Positions 5,659 to 25,220 of a DNA stretch of 64,000 bases are shown here, piece after piece; the stretch's first letter is position 1; every line of letters starts with the position of its first letter. Below the pieces are notes generated by a model. It saw nothing but the letters and a program-made list of their open reading frames with translations, was not told where the DNA came from and did no database searches. The position numbers and the translations under genes are program-made. This stretch comes from an uncultured Bacilli bacterium (GTDB lineage Bacteria > Bacillota_I > Bacilli_A > RF39 > UBA660): positions 1,498 through 65,497 of the forward strand of contig CANQOV010000001.1 in the NCBI GenBank assembly GCA_947625575.1, written 5' to 3'.

Positions 5659-6066
5659 ATGTCTATCATCAAAAAATTTATAATAGAAAGAAATAACTTA
5701 GGATACTACTATGTAGAACAAATAAAAAAACGTAAACTAACTTCCTTTACAGTGTACTATAATAAAGAAAAAATATATTATAGTGAAGATAGTTTTTATG
5801 ATACCTTTCATCAAGACAAATTTATAAAATTAACAACATTTACAAAAAACATAAAACGTGATTTAATATCATTATCTAAAACAAATGATGAAGCTTTAGA
5901 ATTATTAAACAAATTAAAGACATTTAATATTAAAACCAAAACAACATTATTAGAAGTTTTAGATAAATATAATGAAATAATATCTATAAATGATGATATA
6001 AATTTTATTAAACAATATGAAACATTAAGAAAAATAAATAAATTTGACAAGGAGAAAAAACAATGA
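5659..6066 (+). CDS. Hypothetical protein
   Basis: 135-aa ORF with an AG-rich RBS. Its stop overlaps the hisS start. No recognisable motif. Confidence 0.4.
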   Translation: MSIIKKFIIERNNLGYYYVEQIKKRKLTSFTVYYNKEKIYYSEDSFYDTFHQDKFIKLTTFTKNIKRDLISLSKTNDEALELLNKLKTFNIKTKTTLLEVLDKYNEIISINDDINFIKQYETLRKINKFDKEKKQ

Positions 6067-8030: not shown

Positions 8031-9809
8031 ATGAAAGAACTTGAATATCCATTTGACACAGAATATTTATTAAAAAATAAAAAAAAGATGAAAAGACAAC
8101 TATTAGAAAATCCCAATTTGCTTGAAAAAAACATAGCTATTTTAGGAGGATCAACAACAAGTGAAATTAAAAATATGTTAGAAATATTTTTACTTAATTA
8201 TGGAATAAAACCTAATTTTTATGAATCTGAATACAATAAATATTATGAAGATGCAATATTTGGAAATGAACAATTAGATGAATTTAATCCAGATATTATA
8301 TATATTCATACTACAAATAGAAATATAACTGATTATCCAACTTTATATGATGATGAAAAAACTATAGATGAAATGCTAAATAATGAATACAATAAATATA
8401 AAAAAATATGGGAAGCATTAAAAAATAAATACAAAGCCACAATAATTCAAAATAACTTTGAATATCCTTTTTATAGATTATTAGGTAATAAAGATGCTAG
8501 TGATATTCATGGTAAAATTAATTATATAACCAAACTTAACCAACTTTTTTATGATTATGCTAATAGTACTACTAATTTTTTTATAAATGACATAAATTAT
8601 GTTTCAGCTTGTTATGGATTAGATAAATGGTCTAACCAATTTTATTGGCATATGTATAAATATGCTTTAGAAGTTCCTGCAATACCATACCTTTCATTTA
8701 ACATTGCAGCAATTATTAAATCAATATATGGTAAAAATAAAAAAGCTTTAGTCCTTGATCTTGATAATACACTATGGGGTGGTGTAGTAGGAGATGACGG
8801 TGTTGAAAATTTAGATATTGGTCCAGAAGTGCCACAAGGACAAGTATATTTTGAATTTCAAAAATATTTAAAAGAACAAAAAAGTCTAGGTATTATTTTA
8901 AATATAAATTCTAAAAATGAATATGAAAATGCAATTGCTGGTCTAGAACATCCAGCAGGGCTTTTAAAAAAAGATGATTTTATAATTATCAAAGCTAATT
9001 GGAATCCAAAAAACTTAAATATCAAAGATATTGCAGAAGAATTAAATCTTGGTGCAGATAGTTTTGTCTTTGTAGATGATAATCCTGCTGAAAGAAAAGT
9101 TGTATATGATTATACTCCTGGTATTGCAACTCCAGAAATAGATGTACCTGAAAATTACATAAGAATCATTGATAAAAATAATTATTTTGAAATGACTAAT
9201 TTTTCTAAAGAAGATTTAAAGAAAAGTGAACTATATAAAGATAATGCTAAAAGAAGTCAAATGATGGCTACTTTTGATAATTATGATGATTATCTAAAAT
9301 CTCTTAAAATGAAGGCAGAAATAACATCTTTTAAACCAATATATCTTGAAAGAATATCTCAGCTATCTAATAAGAGTAATCAATTTAACTTAACCACAAA
9401 AAGATATTCTTTAAGTGATATAGAGGAAGTCTATAATAGTGATAACTATATCAAAATTTATGGTAAATTAGAAGATATTTTTGGTGATAATGGCGTAATT
9501 TCAGTTGTTATTGGTAATATTAAAAATAAAGATGAATTACATATTGATTTATGGATAATGAGTTGTAGAGTCTTAAAAAGAAATATGGAATTTGCTATGA
9601 TGGACGAATTAGTTAATCAAACCAAAGAAAGAAATATCAAAACAATATATGGCTATTATTATCCTACATTTAAAAATAAAATGGTCAAAGATTTTTATGA
9701 TTTACAAGGATTTACTTTAGTAAATGAAGATGAAGACGGTAACAAAACATACAAATTAGATGTTTTAAGTTATAAAAATAAAAATAATGTAATTGAGGTG
9801 AGCAAATAA
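8031..9809 (+). CDS. FkbH-like HAD-superfamily protein with extra N-terminal domain (putative carrier-protein loading enzyme)
   Basis: HAD motif I …ALVLDLDNTLWGG… at about residue 240, followed by an FkbH-like (HAD IIIC-type) region. 592 aa. The stop overlaps the start of a carrier-protein gene. Confidence 0.55.
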   Translation: MKELEYPFDTEYLLKNKKKMKRQLLENPNLLEKNIAILGGSTTSEIKNMLEIFLLNYGIKPNFYESEYNKYYEDAIFGNEQLDEFNPDIIYIHTTNRNITDYPTLYDDEKTIDEMLNNEYNKYKKIWEALKNKYKATIIQNNFEYPFYRLLGNKDASDIHGKINYITKLNQLFYDYANSTTNFFINDINYVSACYGLDKWSNQFYWHMYKYALEVPAIPYLSFNIAAIIKSIYGKNKKALVLDLDNTLWGGVVGDDGVENLDIGPEVPQGQVYFEFQKYLKEQKSLGIILNINSKNEYENAIAGLEHPAGLLKKDDFIIIKANWNPKNLNIKDIAEELNLGADSFVFVDDNPAERKVVYDYTPGIATPEIDVPENYIRIIDKNNYFEMTNFSKEDLKKSELYKDNAKRSQMMATFDNYDDYLKSLKMKAEITSFKPIYLERISQLSNKSNQFNLTTKRYSLSDIEEVYNSDNYIKIYGKLEDIFGDNGVISVVIGNIKNKDELHIDLWIMSCRVLKRNMEFAMMDELVNQTKERNIKTIYGYYYPTFKNKMVKDFYDLQGFTLVNEDEDGNKTYKLDVLSYKNKNNVIEVSK

Positions 9810-10048
9810 TGGAAGAAATATACGAAAGATTAAATCATGTTTTTCAAGATGTATTTGATGATGAGAATATCAAAGTAAATGAAAACACAACTGCAGATGA
9901 TATTGAAGACTGGGATAGTCTTGAACATATAAATCTTGTAGTGGCAGTAGAACAAGAATTTGGTATGAAATTCAACATGAGTGAAGTTACAACAATGAAA
10001 AATGTTGGAGACATGGCTAAAATAGTTCAAGAAAGAAAAACAAAATAA
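9809..10048 (+). CDS. Acyl/peptidyl carrier protein (DltC/ACP-like)
   Basis: 79 aa with the phosphopantetheine attachment motif …EDWDSLEHINLVVAVEQEFG… (DSL). Confidence 0.75.
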   Translation: MEEIYERLNHVFQDVFDDENIKVNENTTADDIEDWDSLEHINLVVAVEQEFGMKFNMSEVTTMKNVGDMAKIVQERKTK

Positions 10049-10058
10049 GCTTATAGGA

Positions 10059-10514
10059 GTGATAAAAATGAAATTTCATCATATTGGAATAGCAACAAAT
10101 AACATAGAAAGAACAAAAGAAAAATTACAAAAGTTTTTTAATGTAAAAGAAATATCAAATACCATATATGATAAAAATCAAGATGCGTACTTATGTATGA
10201 TCACTTTAGATGACAATATAAAAATTGAACTTATAAATGGCAAAGTAGTAGAAAATATTTTAAAGAAAAGACAATATCTATATCATACTTGTTATGAGAC
10301 AGATGATTTAGAAAATGAAATGAAAAAGTTAATAGATGATGGTGCTTTTCTTGTAAGTGATGCAAAAGAGGCAATTTTGTTTGATAACCAGAAAGTTGCT
10401 TTTTTGATGTGGGATTTAGGTCTCATAGAATTACTTCAAAAAGATATCCCGGGGGGGGTAATTTATAAAATCTTTTATAAATTATCAACAAATTTAGTAG
10501 GAGTGGTAGCATGA
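10059..10514 (+). CDS. VOC-family (glyoxalase / methylmalonyl-CoA epimerase fold) protein
   Basis: N-terminus MKFHHIGIATNNIER… is typical of VOC / glyoxalase-I-like enzymes. Contains a G8 homopolymer (10451-10458). Confidence 0.5.
   Translation: MIKMKFHHIGIATNNIERTKEKLQKFFNVKEISNTIYDKNQDAYLCMITLDDNIKIELINGKVVENILKKRQYLYHTCYETDDLENEMKKLIDDGAFLVSDAKEAILFDNQKVAFLMWDLGLIELLQKDIPGGVIYKIFYKLSTNLVGVVA
10451..10458 (+). repeat. G8 homopolymeric tract inside a CDS, 53 nt upstream of the overlapping MBOAT start
   Basis: CCCGGGGGGGGTAA, read directly. Gains or losses of one G create near-immediate stops (G7 gives …ccg ggg ggg TAA). Confidence 0.9.
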
Positions 10515-12040
10515 ATTTAACATCATTTAGTTTTATAATATTTTGTATTTTAACATTTACATTATATTTTAGTTTTCCAAAAAAATATAAATGGATAGTT
10601 TTATCTGTATCAAGTTTATTTTTTCTATTCTATAAAAATGTTACATTATCAACTTTGCTACAAGCTTTAATTATTCTTTTTGTATCATATTTTATTGGAT
10701 TAAAACTTGAAAAAAATAAAAATACAAAAACTGGTAAAAAATATTTAACATTTGGAATTTTAATTATTTTAGGTGTACTTATATATCTAAAATATACTAA
10801 TTTATTTTTAACAACTTTTAATCATCTATTTAATTTATTCAATATTAATTTTCAATTTGAATTAGTACATCATAATTCTCTTATAGGTCTTAGTTATTTT
10901 TCCTTAATAATGATTGGATATTTAACTGATATTTATCGTGGTGTTACTAATGCTGAAAAAAATATATTTAAATGTGCTTTATTTATGAGTTATTTTCCAA
11001 TTTTAAATTCTGGTCCTTTCGTAAAATATGATCAAATGAAAGAAAGTTTATATAAAGATCATAAATTTGATTTTGATAGATTAAAAAGAGGAGCAATAAG
11101 AGTTTTATGGGGAATATTTAAAATTCTTGTTATTTCCCAAAGACTTGGTATATTTGTAGATAAAGTATATGGCGATTTAACTAAATTTAAAGGTGTATAT
11201 GTTGTAATAGCGTGTTTGTTCTTTACATTGCAATTATATACTAATTTTTCTGGCTCAATTGATATGATTATGGGTATTTCAGAAATATTTGATATTAAAT
11301 TACCTGAAAACTTTGATGCACCATTTTTCTCAAAGACAATAACTGAATTATGGAGAAGATGGCACATAACTCTTGGTGCTTGGTTAAAAGATTATATATT
11401 TTATCCTTTATTAAAATCTGATTTTATGCAAAAAATAGGAAAATTTTGCAAAGAAAAATTTGGTAAGAAAGCCTATAAAAAAGTTCCACTTTATTTATCT
11501 ATGTTTGTTATGTGGATATTAATTGGAGCTTGGCATGGTGGAGCTTATACATTTATAATTGGATCTGGATTATTACAATTTATTTATATGTTTTTAGAAG
11601 ATAATTTAACTCCAATATCAGATAAAATAAATAACAAACTTGGCATAAACAAAGAAACATTTATTTATAGATTATATCAAAGAATAAGAACTTTTCTATT
11701 ATTTTCTTTTTCAATGATATTCTTTAGAGCAGAAAGCGTTAGTAAAGCAATAAAAATCATAAAAGCAATGTTTGTAAGAAATTATCATGTTTTAATAGGA
11801 AAATCACTATTCAAAGCAGGTCTTAATATAAGTAATTTTGCAGTATTAATAATAGCATTAGTAATTCTATTTATCGTTGAATTATTTAAAAATCGTGGCA
11901 AAGACGTAAGAGATATTTTAGATAAGCAAAATATAGTATTTAGATGGATAATTTATTTTGCCTTAATATTTGGTATAATTATATTTGGTTGTTATGGAGT
12001 AGGATATAATCCAGCTGACTTTATTTATAGAGAATTTTAG
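10511..12040 (+). CDS. MBOAT-family membrane O-acyltransferase (DltB/AlgI-like)
   Basis: 509-aa polytopic membrane protein. MBOAT-like C-terminal core (…WRRWHITLGAWLKDYIFYPL… with the conserved His). Overlaps the upstream stop (ATGA). Confidence 0.8.
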   Translation: MNLTSFSFIIFCILTFTLYFSFPKKYKWIVLSVSSLFFLFYKNVTLSTLLQALIILFVSYFIGLKLEKNKNTKTGKKYLTFGILIILGVLIYLKYTNLFLTTFNHLFNLFNINFQFELVHHNSLIGLSYFSLIMIGYLTDIYRGVTNAEKNIFKCALFMSYFPILNSGPFVKYDQMKESLYKDHKFDFDRLKRGAIRVLWGIFKILVISQRLGIFVDKVYGDLTKFKGVYVVIACLFFTLQLYTNFSGSIDMIMGISEIFDIKLPENFDAPFFSKTITELWRRWHITLGAWLKDYIFYPLLKSDFMQKIGKFCKEKFGKKAYKKVPLYLSMFVMWILIGAWHGGAYTFIIGSGLLQFIYMFLEDNLTPISDKINNKLGINKETFIYRLYQRIRTFLLFSFSMIFFRAESVSKAIKIIKAMFVRNYHVLIGKSLFKAGLNISNFAVLIIALVILFIVELFKNRGKDVRDILDKQNIVFRWIIYFALIFGIIIFGCYGVGYNPADFIYREF

Positions 12041-12048
12041 GTGATAAA

Positions 12049-13101
12049 ATGAAAAATTATAAAAATTTAATAAAAGTTATAATATTTATTTTTATATTTT
12101 GTATATTATGGCATATAACATTTAAAATATTGTGGGGTGAAAATACAGCACTTTCTTATTTTTATGAAGAAAAAGAAAACACAATTGATGTAGCCTATGT
12201 TGGTGCTAGTAATGTTTACGTATACTTTAACACAACACTTGCATACAACGAATATGGTTTTACAACCTATAATATTGCTACCGACTCGCAACCATTTGTC
12301 TATATAAAATACCTCCTTAAAGAAATTCAAAAATACCAAAAACCAAAACTTTACATAATTGATATAACGAGAATTATTTCAAATCCAGATTATTATGATG
12401 AAAATTCAATAAGAAAATTAATTGATAGTATGAAAAAATCATATAATCAATATGAAGCTTTAACTAGTGTTTTGGATTATTTAGAAATGCCAAATGAAGA
12501 AAGAGTAAATTATTATTTTAGTTTTCTTTTATATCACAATAGATGGGAAGACTTTAAAGGGAAAAGTTTGACTGAAAATACAAATTTATATAAAGGTTTT
12601 CAAACAAAAAATTATAATTTCAATATTAAACCTCAAAAGAAAATATTATGGAATAATGATTCATCTATTAAAGTAACTGACAAAAATAAAGAAGTTTTGC
12701 TAGATTTATTAGAATATATAAATGATAATAATTTAAACGTACTTTTTACAATTCCATGTAGAACATTTAATGCTACAGAAATGAGTAAATTAAATGATGC
12801 AACCAAAATTATTAATAAATATGACTACCAAGTAATAAATTTTAATCAAAATGATTCTTACATTGATTACTCAAATGACTTATATAATCCAAATCATTTA
12901 AATATATATGGCTCAACAAAATTTACATTATATTTTGCCAAATATTTAGATAATATTTATAATTTGCCTGATCATAGAAATGATGAAAAATATTCATCTT
13001 GGGTTGAAGAATACAATAGATTTAAAAGCAAATATGAGCAAAAAACAAATAATAATTTTGAAGCTTTAGTCAAAGAATATAAAGAAAAATATAATTTTTA
13101 A
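12049..13101 (+). CDS. DltD/AlgJ-like membrane-anchored SGNH-fold protein (MBOAT partner)
   Basis: N-terminal TM anchor. Putative nucleophile block VAYVGASNVY and His block NPNHLNIYG. Sits immediately after the MBOAT gene. Weak motif-level call. Confidence 0.4.
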   Translation: MKNYKNLIKVIIFIFIFCILWHITFKILWGENTALSYFYEEKENTIDVAYVGASNVYVYFNTTLAYNEYGFTTYNIATDSQPFVYIKYLLKEIQKYQKPKLYIIDITRIISNPDYYDENSIRKLIDSMKKSYNQYEALTSVLDYLEMPNEERVNYYFSFLLYHNRWEDFKGKSLTENTNLYKGFQTKNYNFNIKPQKKILWNNDSSIKVTDKNKEVLLDLLEYINDNNLNVLFTIPCRTFNATEMSKLNDATKIINKYDYQVINFNQNDSYIDYSNDLYNPNHLNIYGSTKFTLYFAKYLDNIYNLPDHRNDEKYSSWVEEYNRFKSKYEQKTNNNFEALVKEYKEKYNF

Positions 13102-16195: not shown

Positions 16196-17503
16196 ATGAA
16201 AAAAAAGGTTTATATAGCAATGTCTGCTGATGTTATACATCAAGGTCACATCAATATCATCGAAGAAGGTGCAAAATATGGAGATGTAATAATTGGTTTA
16301 CTAACTGATGAAGCTATTGCTAGTTACAAACGCATGCCACTATTAAATTATGAAAATAGAAAAAAAATATTTGAAAATCTTAAAAATGTTACTGAAATAG
16401 TACCACAAAGCACGCTTGACTATACTGAAAATCTAAGAAAAATTAAACCAGATTATGTATTACATGGAGATGATTGGCGTACAGGAATTCAAAGTGTAGT
16501 TAGAGATAATGTAATTAATACCTTAAAAGAATGGAACGGAGAATTAATTGAAATACCTTATACTAAAGATGTAAATTCTACTGATTTAGAACATAAATAT
16601 CGTGAACTTACAAATACACCTGATATAAGAAGAGCAAAACTTCGTCAACTTTTAAAATTTAAACCATATATAAGTGTTATGGAAGCATCAAATGGATTAT
16701 CAGGATTAATTGTTGAAAATGCAACTGCCATTAATCGCGATAGTAAAACGACAAAAGAGTTTGATGCGATGTGGGTTAGTAGTTTATGTGATTCAACATT
16801 TAAAGGAAAACCTGATATTGAATTAGTTGATTTAACTAGTAGAATAAATACAATCAATGAAATATTGGAAGTTACTACTAAACCAATAATATTAGATGGT
16901 GATACTGGTGGTAAAATAGAGCATTTTGTATACAATGTTAAAACCTTAGAAAGACTTGGAGTTTCAGCTATTATTATTGAAGATAAAACAGGTTTAAAGA
17001 AAAATTCATTATTTGGTACAGAAGTTAAACAAACTTTAGATGATCCAGATAGATTTGCAGAAAAAATAAAAGCAGGAAAACAAGCTCTTGCAACAAAGGA
17101 TTTCATGATTTTTGCAAGATTAGAAAGCTTAATTGCTGGTATGGGAATAGATGATGCTTTATCAAGAGCTGATAAATATATCGAAGCAGGAGCAGATGGA
17201 ATAATGATTCACAGCAAAGAAAAAACAGGATTGGATATAAAAGAATTTTTAGAAAGATTTAAGAAAAAATATCATAATGTTCCAACAATAGTAGTACCTA
17301 CTTCATATAATCAATTTACAGAAGAAGAATTACATGAGTGGGGTGCAAATATAATTATTCATGCAAATCATTTATTAAGGAGTGCATATCCAGCAATGAT
17401 GAAAACAGCTAAAACAATACTAGAAAATGGCAGAAGCAAAGAAGCTGATGAGTATTGTATGCCAATAAAAGAAATTATAACATTAATTCCGGGGGGAAAA
17501 TAA
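16196..17503 (+). CDS. pepM: Phosphoenolpyruvate mutase (PepM/AepX) with N-terminal cytidylyltransferase-like (HxGH) domain
   Basis: N-terminus …[16 protein letters not shown]… (HxGH nucleotidyltransferase). C-terminal PEP mutase core …ILDGDTGG…IIIEDK…. Confidence 0.8.
17492..17497 (+). repeat. G6 tract at the pepM stop / ppd start junction
   Basis: …att ccg ggg gga aaa TAA a ATG… Loss of one G puts ppd in frame with pepM. Confidence 0.85.
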
Positions 17504-17504
17504 A

Positions 17505-18614
17505 ATGATAGATACAGAAGAATTTTACAAATATTTAATTAGTAAAAAACTTGATTTTTTTGCTGGTGTTCCTGATTCTTTATTAAAAAACTTATGTGCT
17601 TGCATTAAAGCTAACACTAAAACAGATCACAACATCATTGCTGCCAATGAGGGAAATGCTATTGCAATGGCTGCAGGATATCATATTGCATCAGGCAATT
17701 ATGGTGTCGTATATATGCAAAATTCTGGTATCGGAAATGCAGTTAATCCATTACTTTCTTTAGTAGATGAAGAAGTGTATAGTATTCCAATGCTATTAAT
17801 TGTAGGTTGGAGAGGAGAGCCGGGCACAAAAGATGAGCCACAGCATGTTAAACAAGGAAAAGTAACTATTGAATTATTTAAAACAATGGGAATTGAAACT
17901 ATTATTTTAGATGAAAATTATAAAAGCCAAATAGACTATTGTTATAATTATATGAAAGAAAACAATAAACCAATTGCTGTTATCATAAAAAAAGGTTTAT
18001 TTAGTAATTATAAAATAGATATGCCTGAAAACAATTATCAAATAAAAAGAGAAGAAGCTTTAGAAACAATATTAAAATGTTTAGATAAAGATGATTTTGT
18101 AGTTTCAACTACAGGAAAAACATCAAGAGAAATTTTTGAAATAAGAGAAAGAGATAACGAAGAACACAGTAATGACTTTTTAACAGTTGGATCTATGGGA
18201 CATACTTCATCTATTGCACTTGGTATGAGTATTGGGTGTGACAAAAATATTTATTGTATAGATGGCGACGGATCTTTTATTATGCATATGGGCTCTTTTG
18301 CCATAATTCCATCAGTAGCAAGTAAAAATTTTAAATATATTTTAATAAACAATGGTGCTCATGAATCTGTAGGAGGTCAACCAACTGTAGCATTTAATAT
18401 TAACGTTAAAGATACATTATTATCATTAGGTTTTAAAAATGTTTATACAGCATATACAAAAGAAGATATTGAAAAATATATGAAAAATTTAAAATACGAC
18501 AAATTACAAGCATTAGTAGTTTACACTAAATTAGGATCTAGAGAAGATTTAGGACGTCCTACAATTAGTCCTGTTGATAATAAAAAATCAATGATGAAAA
18601 AATTAAATAAATAA
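17505..18614 (+). CDS. ppd: Phosphonopyruvate decarboxylase (TPP-dependent)
   Basis: TPP-binding motif …CIDGDGSFIMHMGS… Size 369 aa. Immediately downstream of pepM. Confidence 0.75.
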   Translation: MIDTEEFYKYLISKKLDFFAGVPDSLLKNLCACIKANTKTDHNIIAANEGNAIAMAAGYHIASGNYGVVYMQNSGIGNAVNPLLSLVDEEVYSIPMLLIVGWRGEPGTKDEPQHVKQGKVTIELFKTMGIETIILDENYKSQIDYCYNYMKENNKPIAVIIKKGLFSNYKIDMPENNYQIKREEALETILKCLDKDDFVVSTTGKTSREIFEIRERDNEEHSNDFLTVGSMGHTSSIALGMSIGCDKNIYCIDGDGSFIMHMGSFAIIPSVASKNFKYILINNGAHESVGGQPTVAFNINVKDTLLSLGFKNVYTAYTKEDIEKYMKNLKYDKLQALVVYTKLGSREDLGRPTISPVDNKKSMMKKLNK

Positions 18615-24368: not shown

Positions 24369-24397
24369 TTGACAGAGTCCGGGGGGGGGGTTATAAT
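24369..24397 (+). promoter_or_regulatory. Promoter with a homopolymeric G10 tract forming the -35/-10 spacer (candidate phase-variable promoter)
   Basis: TTGACA (24369-24374), spacer GAGTCC+G10+T = 17 nt, TATAAT (24392-24397). RBS AAGGTGG, then ATG at 24432. Confidence 0.5.
24381..24390 (+). repeat. G10 homopolymer (simple-sequence contingency tract)
   Basis: Ten consecutive G in an AT-rich genome, read directly. Confidence 0.95.
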
Positions 24398-24431: not shown

Positions 24432-25220
24432 ATGAAAGAAAAAATATTGTTATTTATACCAATGTATAACTGTGAAAAACAAGTAATAAGAGTTTTAAAT
24501 CAAATAGATAGCGAAGTAGCAAAATATATAAAAGAAATATTAGTAGTAAATAACCGAAGCACCGATAATGGTGAAAAAGCTGTGCTCGATTTCACCAAAC
24601 AAAGCAAGCTTAAAATTACTATAGTAAGAAATGATGAAAACTATAACCTTGGAGGATCACATAAAGTTGCTTTTCAATATGCAATTGATAATGAATATGA
24701 CTATGTAATTGTATTGCATGGTGATGATCAAGGTAATATTCATGATTTATTACCTTATCTTAAAAATGAAGATTATAAAAAATATGATTGTTTACTTGGA
24801 TCACGATTTATAAAAGGATCAAAATTACAAGGATATTCTAAATTTAGAACATTTGGTAATATAGTATATAACTATTTATTTTCTTTTGTAATTCATAAAA
24901 GAGTATATGATTTAGGATCTGGATTAAATATGTATTCTACTGAAATGTTAAAAAGCAATTACTATTTTAAATTCCCAGATAAATTAACATTTAACTATTT
25001 AATGGTATTAGCAATACATTACTATCATCAAAATGTTAAATTTTTCCCAATTACATGGAGGGAAGATGATCAAGTATCTAATGTTAAAATGGTTAATCAA
25101 GCATTTGAGGTTTTAAAAATGTTATTTAAATACATGTTTAATCATGATTATATAAAAAGTGAATTTAGAGATAAACAAGTACGAAAATATACATATAAGG
25201 AAATAAAAAATGACAAATAA
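24432..25220 (+). CDS. GT2 family glycosyltransferase (GtrB / polyprenyl-phosphate sugar synthase-like, soluble form)
   Basis: …LLFIPMYNCEKQV…VVNNRSTDN…VLHGDDQG… 262 aa. Confidence 0.65.
   Translation: MKEKILLFIPMYNCEKQVIRVLNQIDSEVAKYIKEILVVNNRSTDNGEKAVLDFTKQSKLKITIVRNDENYNLGGSHKVAFQYAIDNEYDYVIVLHGDDQGNIHDLLPYLKNEDYKKYDCLLGSRFIKGSKLQGYSKFRTFGNIVYNYLFSFVIHKRVYDLGSGLNMYSTEMLKSNYYFKFPDKLTFNYLMVLAIHYYHQNVKFFPITWREDDQVSNVKMVNQAFEVLKMLFKYMFNHDYIKSEFRDKQVRKYTYKEIKNDK

Follow-up and report, generated by a model that had tools for sequence, protein, structure and literature searches.

Phase variation by changes in homopolymer length is textbook knowledge in a few pathogens (Campylobacter, Neisseria and Helicobacter), and to our knowledge it has hardly been documented in commensal, uncultured gut Bacillota. 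We also know of no phase variation of dlt. In Neisseria meningitidis the poly-C phase variation of siaD ends translation prematurely within the gene and affects downstream expression through Rho-dependent polarity; SiaD itself is inactivated. Homopolymers are also found within promoter spacers, as in opc and porA of Neisseria and in vlp of Mycoplasma hyorhinis. A different way of linking gene outputs, translational coupling by overlapping stop and start codons (ATGA, TAATG), is known from the trp and gal operons of Escherichia coli. Campylobacter jejuni has poly-G contingency loci in Cj1295 and in other capsule, LOS and flagellin-glycan genes (PMC3068675), and the general properties and constraints of SSRs have been described (PMC3315296). 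In Mycobacterium tuberculosis a homopolymer indel in the 5'UTR of espR changes the translation efficiency and not the protein sequence (PMC11898584). A literature search returned no paper in which SSR phase variation and translational coupling come together.

We have analyzed a stretch of 64,000 nucleotides of an uncultured Bacilli bacterium (the whole stretch is called the window from here on), in which a G8 tract is located where a VOC gene meets the gene of an MBOAT membrane acyltransferase. As in the C. jejuni loci, this tract and those of related genomes are G8–G11, belong to AT-rich genomes, and are found in genes for surface-glycan modification; those of sister species are also polymorphic in length among close relatives. 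However, the C. jejuni tracts lie in coding regions and their frameshifts switch the enzyme, whereas here the enzyme core stays intact and the point of termination moves. What differs from the known poly-G loci is the position at a junction, where both enzymes are spared. The locus resembles espR in having, upstream of a start codon, a poly-G whose length would affect translation, but the espR effect involves 5'UTR folding in a monocistronic leader, while the tract of the window is intercistronic and involves the termination of the upstream ORF. The similarity with trp and gal lies in the ATGA of the G8 phase and in a stop within ~10 nt of the next start as the norm of the family; their coupling is hard-wired, whereas in the window it would depend on a repeat that can mutate, and the MBOAT gene keeps a strong Shine-Dalgarno sequence (SD) of its own. 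Like in siaD, slippage in the upstream cistron is proposed here to move the ribosome stop and thereby the downstream output, but VOC is not inactivated and the siaD effect takes the route of in-gene termination and polarity. Finally, a spacer of the opc, porA or vlp type is present in the window at another tract (G10, 24381-24390), unlike the G8, which has no flanking -35 and -10 hexamers. If the tract works as proposed, the repeat acts by conditional translational coupling and not by gene breakage, and it would generate stochastic diversity in the acylation of teichoic acids or other glycans, relevant to the pressure of phages, antibodies and antimicrobial peptides.

The acylation module

The genes around the tract follow the order acpS (on the minus strand), FkbH-like, ACP, VOC, MBOAT and the protein encoded at 12049-13101. 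Those flanking the VOC gene on the plus strand are:

8031..9809, + strand, FkbH-like loading enzyme (profile search), upstream half of the module
9809..10048, + strand, acyl carrier protein (profile search), upstream half of the module
10511..12040, + strand, MBOAT (DltB-like) membrane acyltransferase (PF03062, 37.5 bits, cutoff 27), proposed target of the switch
12049..13101, + strand, SGNH/GDSL-like, membrane-anchored protein of 350 residues, in the position of DltD in dlt operons, starting 8 nt after the MBOAT stop

The set resembles Dlt (DltA-D) in having a carrier protein, an MBOAT and an extracytoplasmic SGNH-type partner. It differs in the FkbH-type loader that replaces DltA, in the extra VOC enzyme and in the MBOAT itself, a general member of this superfamily that falls far below the cutoff of the DltB equivalog (TIGR04091, 115.7 bits, cutoff 375). 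Exact look-up of the MBOAT protein returned no record. The protein at 12049-13101 and its profile had no match in Pfam, NCBIfam or PDB, so that its earlier designation as DltD-like has no direct domain match behind it; within its family, 5/22 aligned members matched Lipase_GDSL_2 (GDSL/SGNH) and 4/22 matched DUF1574. FkbH-ACP-VOC-MBOAT-SGNH is apparently an uncharacterised Dlt-like acylation module, and a literature search for FkbH, MBOAT and ACP together retrieved only an unrelated review. The window is a surface-polymer region, with two TagF-type glycerophosphotransferases, a PEP-mutase/phosphonopyruvate-decarboxylase pair, LicD and a GT2 operon.

The module is widespread in rabbit-gut Bacillota MAGs (window 8031-13101; L013 219-6566; L027, where there are three SGNH paralogues). 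In some versions VOC is separated from MBOAT by a 244-aa gene and a MaoC dehydratase.

The G8 tract and the end of the VOC gene

The relevant features of the VOC gene and its frames are:

10068..10457, + strand, conserved part of VOC (Glyoxalase_4), opening at ATG with MKFHHIGIAT... and extending to the C-terminus typical of the family (homologues of 125-131 aa)
10451..10458, + strand, G8 homopolymer, codons 128-131 (P-G-G-V) of the VOC ORF, slippage-prone element
10458..10514, + strand, unconserved tail of 18 codons (VIYKIFYKLSTNLVGVVA) plus TGA stop, in frame with VOC only when the tract is G8 (mod 3), translated intergenic spacer
10459..10461, + strand, VOC stop TAA of the G7/G10 phase (in-silico length change), 49 nt before the MBOAT start
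10466..10468, + strand, VOC stop TAA of the G6/G9 phase (in-silico length change)
10511..10514, + strand, ATGA overlap of the VOC stop (G8 phase) and the MBOAT start (direct reading and in-silico frames)

Direct reading confirmed the tract reported in the preliminary description, inside the VOC gene and encoding P-G-G-V. The letters at 10440-10470 are aaagatatcc cggggggggt aatttataaa, with a c at 10450 and a t at 10459 as flanks, and the ORF 10068..10514 crosses the tract as ATC CCG GGG GGG GTA ATT (I-P-G-G-V-I). That such a run is highly unusual in AT-rich DNA was equally borne out: the GC content of the 64-kb window is 25.7%, its only G/C runs of at least 6 are this G8, a G6 at 17491 and a G10 at 24381, and between 0.002 (iid) and 0.01 (first-order Markov) G runs of at least 8 are expected per 64 kb. 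The G8 is therefore real and ~100-fold above chance at this GC content, and it has the length characteristic of contingency loci (7-8 nt or more, far above compositional expectation).

When the length of the tract was changed in silico, the termination of VOC with respect to the MBOAT start fell at +4, -42 or -49 depending on the phase, i.e., the reading frame changes with tract length. In the G8 phase the stop TGA (10512-10514) overlaps the ATG at 10511 as ATGA, the kind of overlap found in translationally coupled genes. The recomputed frames agree with the earlier reading that G7 gives an immediate TAA, that G9 gives a stop three codons on and that the overlap of the VOC stop with the MBOAT start depends on tract length, the stop being otherwise a TAA located 42-49 nt upstream. 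The start is indeed nearby, at 52 nt from the tract and not at the 53 nt given before.

The VOC ORF (10059/10068..10514) matched PF13669 Glyoxalase_4 over residues 7-115 (E = 5.7e-16, 59.2 bits, cutoff 27). Methylmalonyl-CoA epimerase was considered as its identity and rejected, the equivalog score being 31.6 versus a cutoff of 115. We placed the start at the ATG 10068 because the homologues begin at MKFHHIGIAT. A search of 5.8 billion proteins provided 266 relatives, the best of which (the identical protein aside) had identities of 60-74% and 125-131 residues, covering 84-85% of the query. The conserved columns of the family alignment all end at ...WDLGLIEL, and 101/120 representatives of homologue clusters have 10 residues or fewer beyond the GLIEL motif. 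Since the homologues end at the tract, the products of G7 (130 aa) and G9 (133 aa) are family-normal, and it is the G8 product (148 aa) that is extended. This reverses the earlier view that both slippage products are truncated forms lacking the last 21 residues; besides, G7 removes 18 residues and G9 replaces 18 with G-N-L. The tail of 18 residues (VIYKIFYKLSTNLVGVVA) had no match in any VOC homologue and reads as translated spacer that is not conserved. At the same point of the protein, 11/120 representatives have GG or GGG followed by unrelated, mostly hydrophobic tails. The "long" VOC proteins of the databases (148-164 residues) are, on this reading, phase artefacts of junction tracts and no real isoform families, which calls for caution by annotators.

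The spacer before the MBOAT gene

Two elements are found between the tract and the MBOAT start:

10459..10484, + strand, perfect 12+12 palindrome TAATTTATAAAA-TC-TTTTATAAATTA, directly 3' of the tract, single copy in the window
10499..10503, + strand, AGGAG Shine-Dalgarno of MBOAT (direct reading), 7 nt before the ATG

The RNA of the palindrome is predicted to form a 13-bp AU hairpin (10457-10486) that uses the last two G's of the tract, with a dG of -9.8 kcal/mol and a z of -6.8 in the folding of the window hairpin. We rejected a repeated element, as no further copies were found in the window or in 75 other loci. When the genes are uncoupled, the hairpin might prevent ribosomes that have terminated on VOC from scanning on to the MBOAT ATG; it could also be an element of mRNA processing or stability, or a promoter of slippage.

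Hairpins of unrelated sequence adjoin the 3' end of the tract in five lineages (window 10457-10486, L013, L018, L068 and L070). In the comparison of these five, the last G's of the tract are in the stem and z ranges from -2 to -4.3.

Coupling is typical of downstream genes without an accessible ribosome-binding site of their own, and here the AGGAG is present. In partition-function folding its pairing was diffuse, with an unpaired probability of 0.2-0.5 and no dominant partner, and the length of the tract had no effect. Sequestration of the SD by a long-range helix (AUUACUUC at 10430-37 with GGAGUGGU at 10500-07) was judged to be unsupported, the pair probability being ~0.27 with competing partners. 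A -1 programmed frameshift cassette was discarded: the candidate slippery heptamers C CCG GGG and G GGG GGG are present at the tract, but the hairpin begins 0-2 nt after them (5-9 nt are needed) and the shifted frames end immediately in TAA. No Rfam family reached its gathering score in the window, and around the tract nothing but noise was obtained.

G tracts in related loci

We compared 65 loci from species-representative genomes together with contigs encoding tailed VOC proteins. Nearly all come from rabbit-gut MAGs of 22-31% GC, labelled as uncultured Clostridia, Bacilli or Erysipelotrichales. G8–G11 tracts at the 3' end of the VOC gene were found in about ten lineages. The tract lengths, with shorter runs on the last line, were:

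Window and L001, G8
L013 and L067, G9 and G8
L018, G10
L068, L077 and L078, G11, G8 and G9
L073, G9
L074 and L075, G9
L069, G8
L070, G8
L029, L071 and L072, G9, G8 and G8
L076, G11
L022 and L032, G5

A neighbour-joining tree built from the VOC core (a short protein, without bootstrap) spreads the tract-bearing loci over at least five separated clades that have tract-less sisters, which implies that the tract was gained or lost repeatedly.

Where relatives have no tract, the VOC gene closes with purine-rich codons (GAGGAG, GGAGG) that constitute the SD of MBOAT. In these the VOC stop almost always overlaps the MBOAT ATG or is at most ~10 nt away, the overlap occurring as ATGA in L009, L017, L027, L028, L031, L040 and L054 and as TAATG in L026, so coupling is a plausible default in the family. 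The tract-less L007 and L021 have long untranslated spacers before MBOAT, and coupling is therefore dispensable in the family. Among the tract-bearing loci, the compact ones have 8-9 nt between the G run and the start codon of MBOAT, with G9-TTCTAAACT-ATG in L029, G11-TATAAATC-ATG in L076 and G8-TAGCAACTC-GTG in L069, which makes the tract the SD in these loci. L025 has a purely intergenic G8 (5918-5925), which lies beyond the MBOAT stop and serves as SD 7 nt before the start of the SGNH gene. The spacing in the compact loci, the G8 of L025 and a G6 SD elsewhere in the window are the reasons why, on sequence grounds, the tracts are best seen as expanded SD sequences.

All the runs of at least 7 found in 335 kb of related loci (18/18) are G on the coding strand of the operon. 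Clustered in surface-modification genes, the G tracts look like the pattern of contingency loci. A metagenome scan with flanks specific to the window gave 0 matches, and a generic pattern (VOC flank plus G7) gave 3, all of them in irrelevant high-GC contigs of JGI metagenomes.

An in-frame G8 was also seen inside the SGNH gene of L006 (4414-4421, ..PDNRGGYYYSSW..).

Polymorphism of tract length

Contigs of the same species were found to differ in tract length. L013 (G9) and L067 (G8) show no mismatch over 2414 nt and one gap, the tract. Again, L029 (G9) is 99.6-99.8% identical to L071 and L072 (both G8), which differ from each other and are therefore independent. L077 (G8) and L078 (G9) have a common downstream sequence, and L068 carries G11. 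At the protein level, G8, G9 and G10 tails of one species fall within a single cluster of 90% identity (P0012, P0125, P0126), and in a second species the G8 (P0088/P0130) and G9 (P0129) tails also share a 90% cluster. The contigs showing these differences were assembled from short reads at low coverage (2-4x where stated), so that single miscalls are possible, and some pairs of the same species could be two assemblies of one sample. Several tract alleles were found on 2-5 contigs each, and the alleles replicated across samples are not attributable to miscalls. The three phases are all present as consensus alleles, without bias. The tract is a genuine repeat of the hypermutable type at a translational junction, and orthologous tracts of sister species vary in length. 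For the species of the window there are two assemblies on record (the second, independent one is L001, ENA ERZ27249684), and both have G8, which counts against a switch.

Compared with the window, L001 has a deletion of ~60 nt at the FkbH/ACP junction (9802-9863) and an in-frame deletion of 9 nt in MBOAT (11729-11737), which are either strain variants or defects of a low-coverage (2.2x) assembly. L068 and L078 (at ~3383 in both) are ~98% identical through the tract plus TACC and unalignable afterwards, and in the cluster of L076 (P0131) one member at 90% has no tract and ends in the tail ELLEEEN. The tract may mark either a homology break or recombination boundary, or a break of the assembly.

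Frames open to the next start

We have examined what each phase does in the other lineages. One phase gives a +4 overlap with the next start in the window (G8), L029 (G9), L076 (G11), L069 (G9) and L075 (G7/G10, across a spacer of 157 nt), in all of them as an exact ATGA or GTGA; near-overlaps were found in L013 (+8) and L073 (+14). The second phase stops just past the tract. The third, in the compact loci, continues out of frame for 18-42 codons and passes over the start of MBOAT, and L071 and L072 were observed in this state. Among six independent lineages with spacers of 52-191 nt, a frame stays open up to the next start, over 52-157 nt, in 4/6. The probability of this excess was 1.6e-4 with composition-preserving shuffles and 0.007 against the empirical rate of ordinary co-directional gaps (5 open in 30), and Fisher tests gave P = 0.02 against the same 5/30 gaps and 0.09 against tract-less relatives with long spacers (1/7). 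With these small matched controls the signal is weaker, and the excess is suggestive, short of decisive.

A proposed switch of translational coupling and its alternatives

The reading that we prefer, at a little under an even chance, is that an SD-derived hypermutable tract toggles the translational coupling of the MBOAT/SGNH half of the Dlt-like module. Slipped-strand mispairing during replication would alter the length of the G8 in the species of the window. The VOC enzyme core would be unharmed, because it ends at the tract, and what would shift is the point where ribosomes terminate. With G8 (or G8 +/- 3), the ribosomes translating VOC would continue across the spacer of 52 nt, open the AU hairpin and terminate at the ATGA, so that the translation of MBOAT and of the following SGNH gene would be coupled to that of VOC. 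With any other length they would stop at a TAA at the hairpin or just inside it, 42-49 nt upstream, and MBOAT would depend on its own AGGAG. The tract lies between the half of the module that makes the substrate (FkbH, ACP, VOC) and the half that transfers it at the membrane (MBOAT and the SGNH protein). Given that the SD of MBOAT is strong, the expected outcome is a heritable, reversible and graded change in surface acylation instead of a strict on/off. Of the earlier claim that slippage would displace the stop, abolish the coupling and reduce MBOAT expression, the displacement of the stop holds; "abolish" is too strong for a gene with its own AGGAG and no robust masking structure, and in a family where MBOAT also lies behind long untranslated spacers in tract-less relatives. 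On this reading, tract length would tune MBOAT expression. A broader proposal, which we consider doubtful, is that uncultured gut Bacillota of low GC possess in these loci a class of contingency locus not described so far, made of an SD-derived poly-G at a gene junction with three states (coupled, uncoupled and out-of-frame occluding), often accompanied by a hairpin "insulator". If the three-state reading were true, it would provide heritable and reversible control of an acylation module without inactivating any enzyme.

The main rival of a coupling switch, and a strong one with a sizeable minority chance of being right, takes the tract for a neutral slippery relic, an SD in the last VOC codons that expanded, so that only dispensable VOC tails are swapped with no meaningful effect on MBOAT. 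The tracts of the compact loci at SD distance, the G8 of L025 that acts as SD without any consequence for a frame and the G6 at 17491, likewise a junction SD, are all as this explanation would have them. So are the completion of the VOC core before the tract, the AGGAG of MBOAT itself and the finding of the three phases as consensus alleles. It fits less well with the tracts found 52-191 nt from any start and yet kept at G8–G11 (window, L013, L018, L068, L073 and L074), with the excess of frames open to the next start and with the presence of tracts at several different sites of the module. Alternatively, the switch might act on VOC, if the hydrophobic tail of 18 residues in the G8 phase altered the activity, stability or membrane association of the enzyme and hence the acyl group available for MBOAT. 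The length of the tract does change the VOC C-terminus, and the tails of the long phase are hydrophobic in several lineages; yet these tails are unrelated between lineages, resemble translated AT-rich spacer and come after the end of the conserved domain, which makes this explanation improbable.

The two remaining explanations are less probable still. A homopolymer miscall, with a true allele of G7 or G9 and a VOC of normal length, would account for the atypically long G8 product, and the related contigs are short-read assemblies of low coverage (2-4x). Against it, the G8 is found in two different assemblies, no other phase ends in the ATGA overlap typical of the family, and long tracts recur in many independent assemblies, so we regard a miscall as very improbable. 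To the location of the tract in the spacer of an internal promoter that tunes the transcription of MBOAT-SGNH we assign the lowest probability of all, despite the textbook G10 case 14 kb away and another one in L024. No sigma-70-like promoter pair spanning 10451-10458 was found on the + strand: the best -10-like hexamer near the tract is TAAAAT (10466-71), and the sequence at the corresponding -35 position, GATATC, matches 1/6. The tract as a promoter-spacer element was accordingly rejected, unlike the G10 at 24381.

Other G tracts and a rearranged locus

The G10 tract had been compared with the G8 in the preliminary description as a promoter tract, and it does fill a perfect promoter spacer. 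Its position at 24381-24390 exactly completes the 17 nt between TTGACA (24369-74) and TATAAT (24392-97), and this promoter precedes an operon, starting at 24432, with a GT2, an LPG_synthase_TM-like and a 473-aa gene. This is the textbook layout of promoter-spacer phase variation. A comparable arrangement, TTGAC-G10-...-TATTAT, was found in L024 (5254-5263).

The third run of the window, the G6 at 17491-17496, supplies the final codons of a gene (16196-17503) in which a cytidylyltransferase is fused to a PEP mutase, and doubles as the SD of a TPP enzyme (phosphonopyruvate-decarboxylase-like) that starts at 17505. The pair of enzymes suggests a phosphonate decoration pathway.

In L070 (461-2713) no more than a 5' remnant of MBOAT follows the G8 tract, and further on come an SGNH gene and two ORFs for tyrosine recombinases (phage integrases), a context that may be rearranged or mobile.
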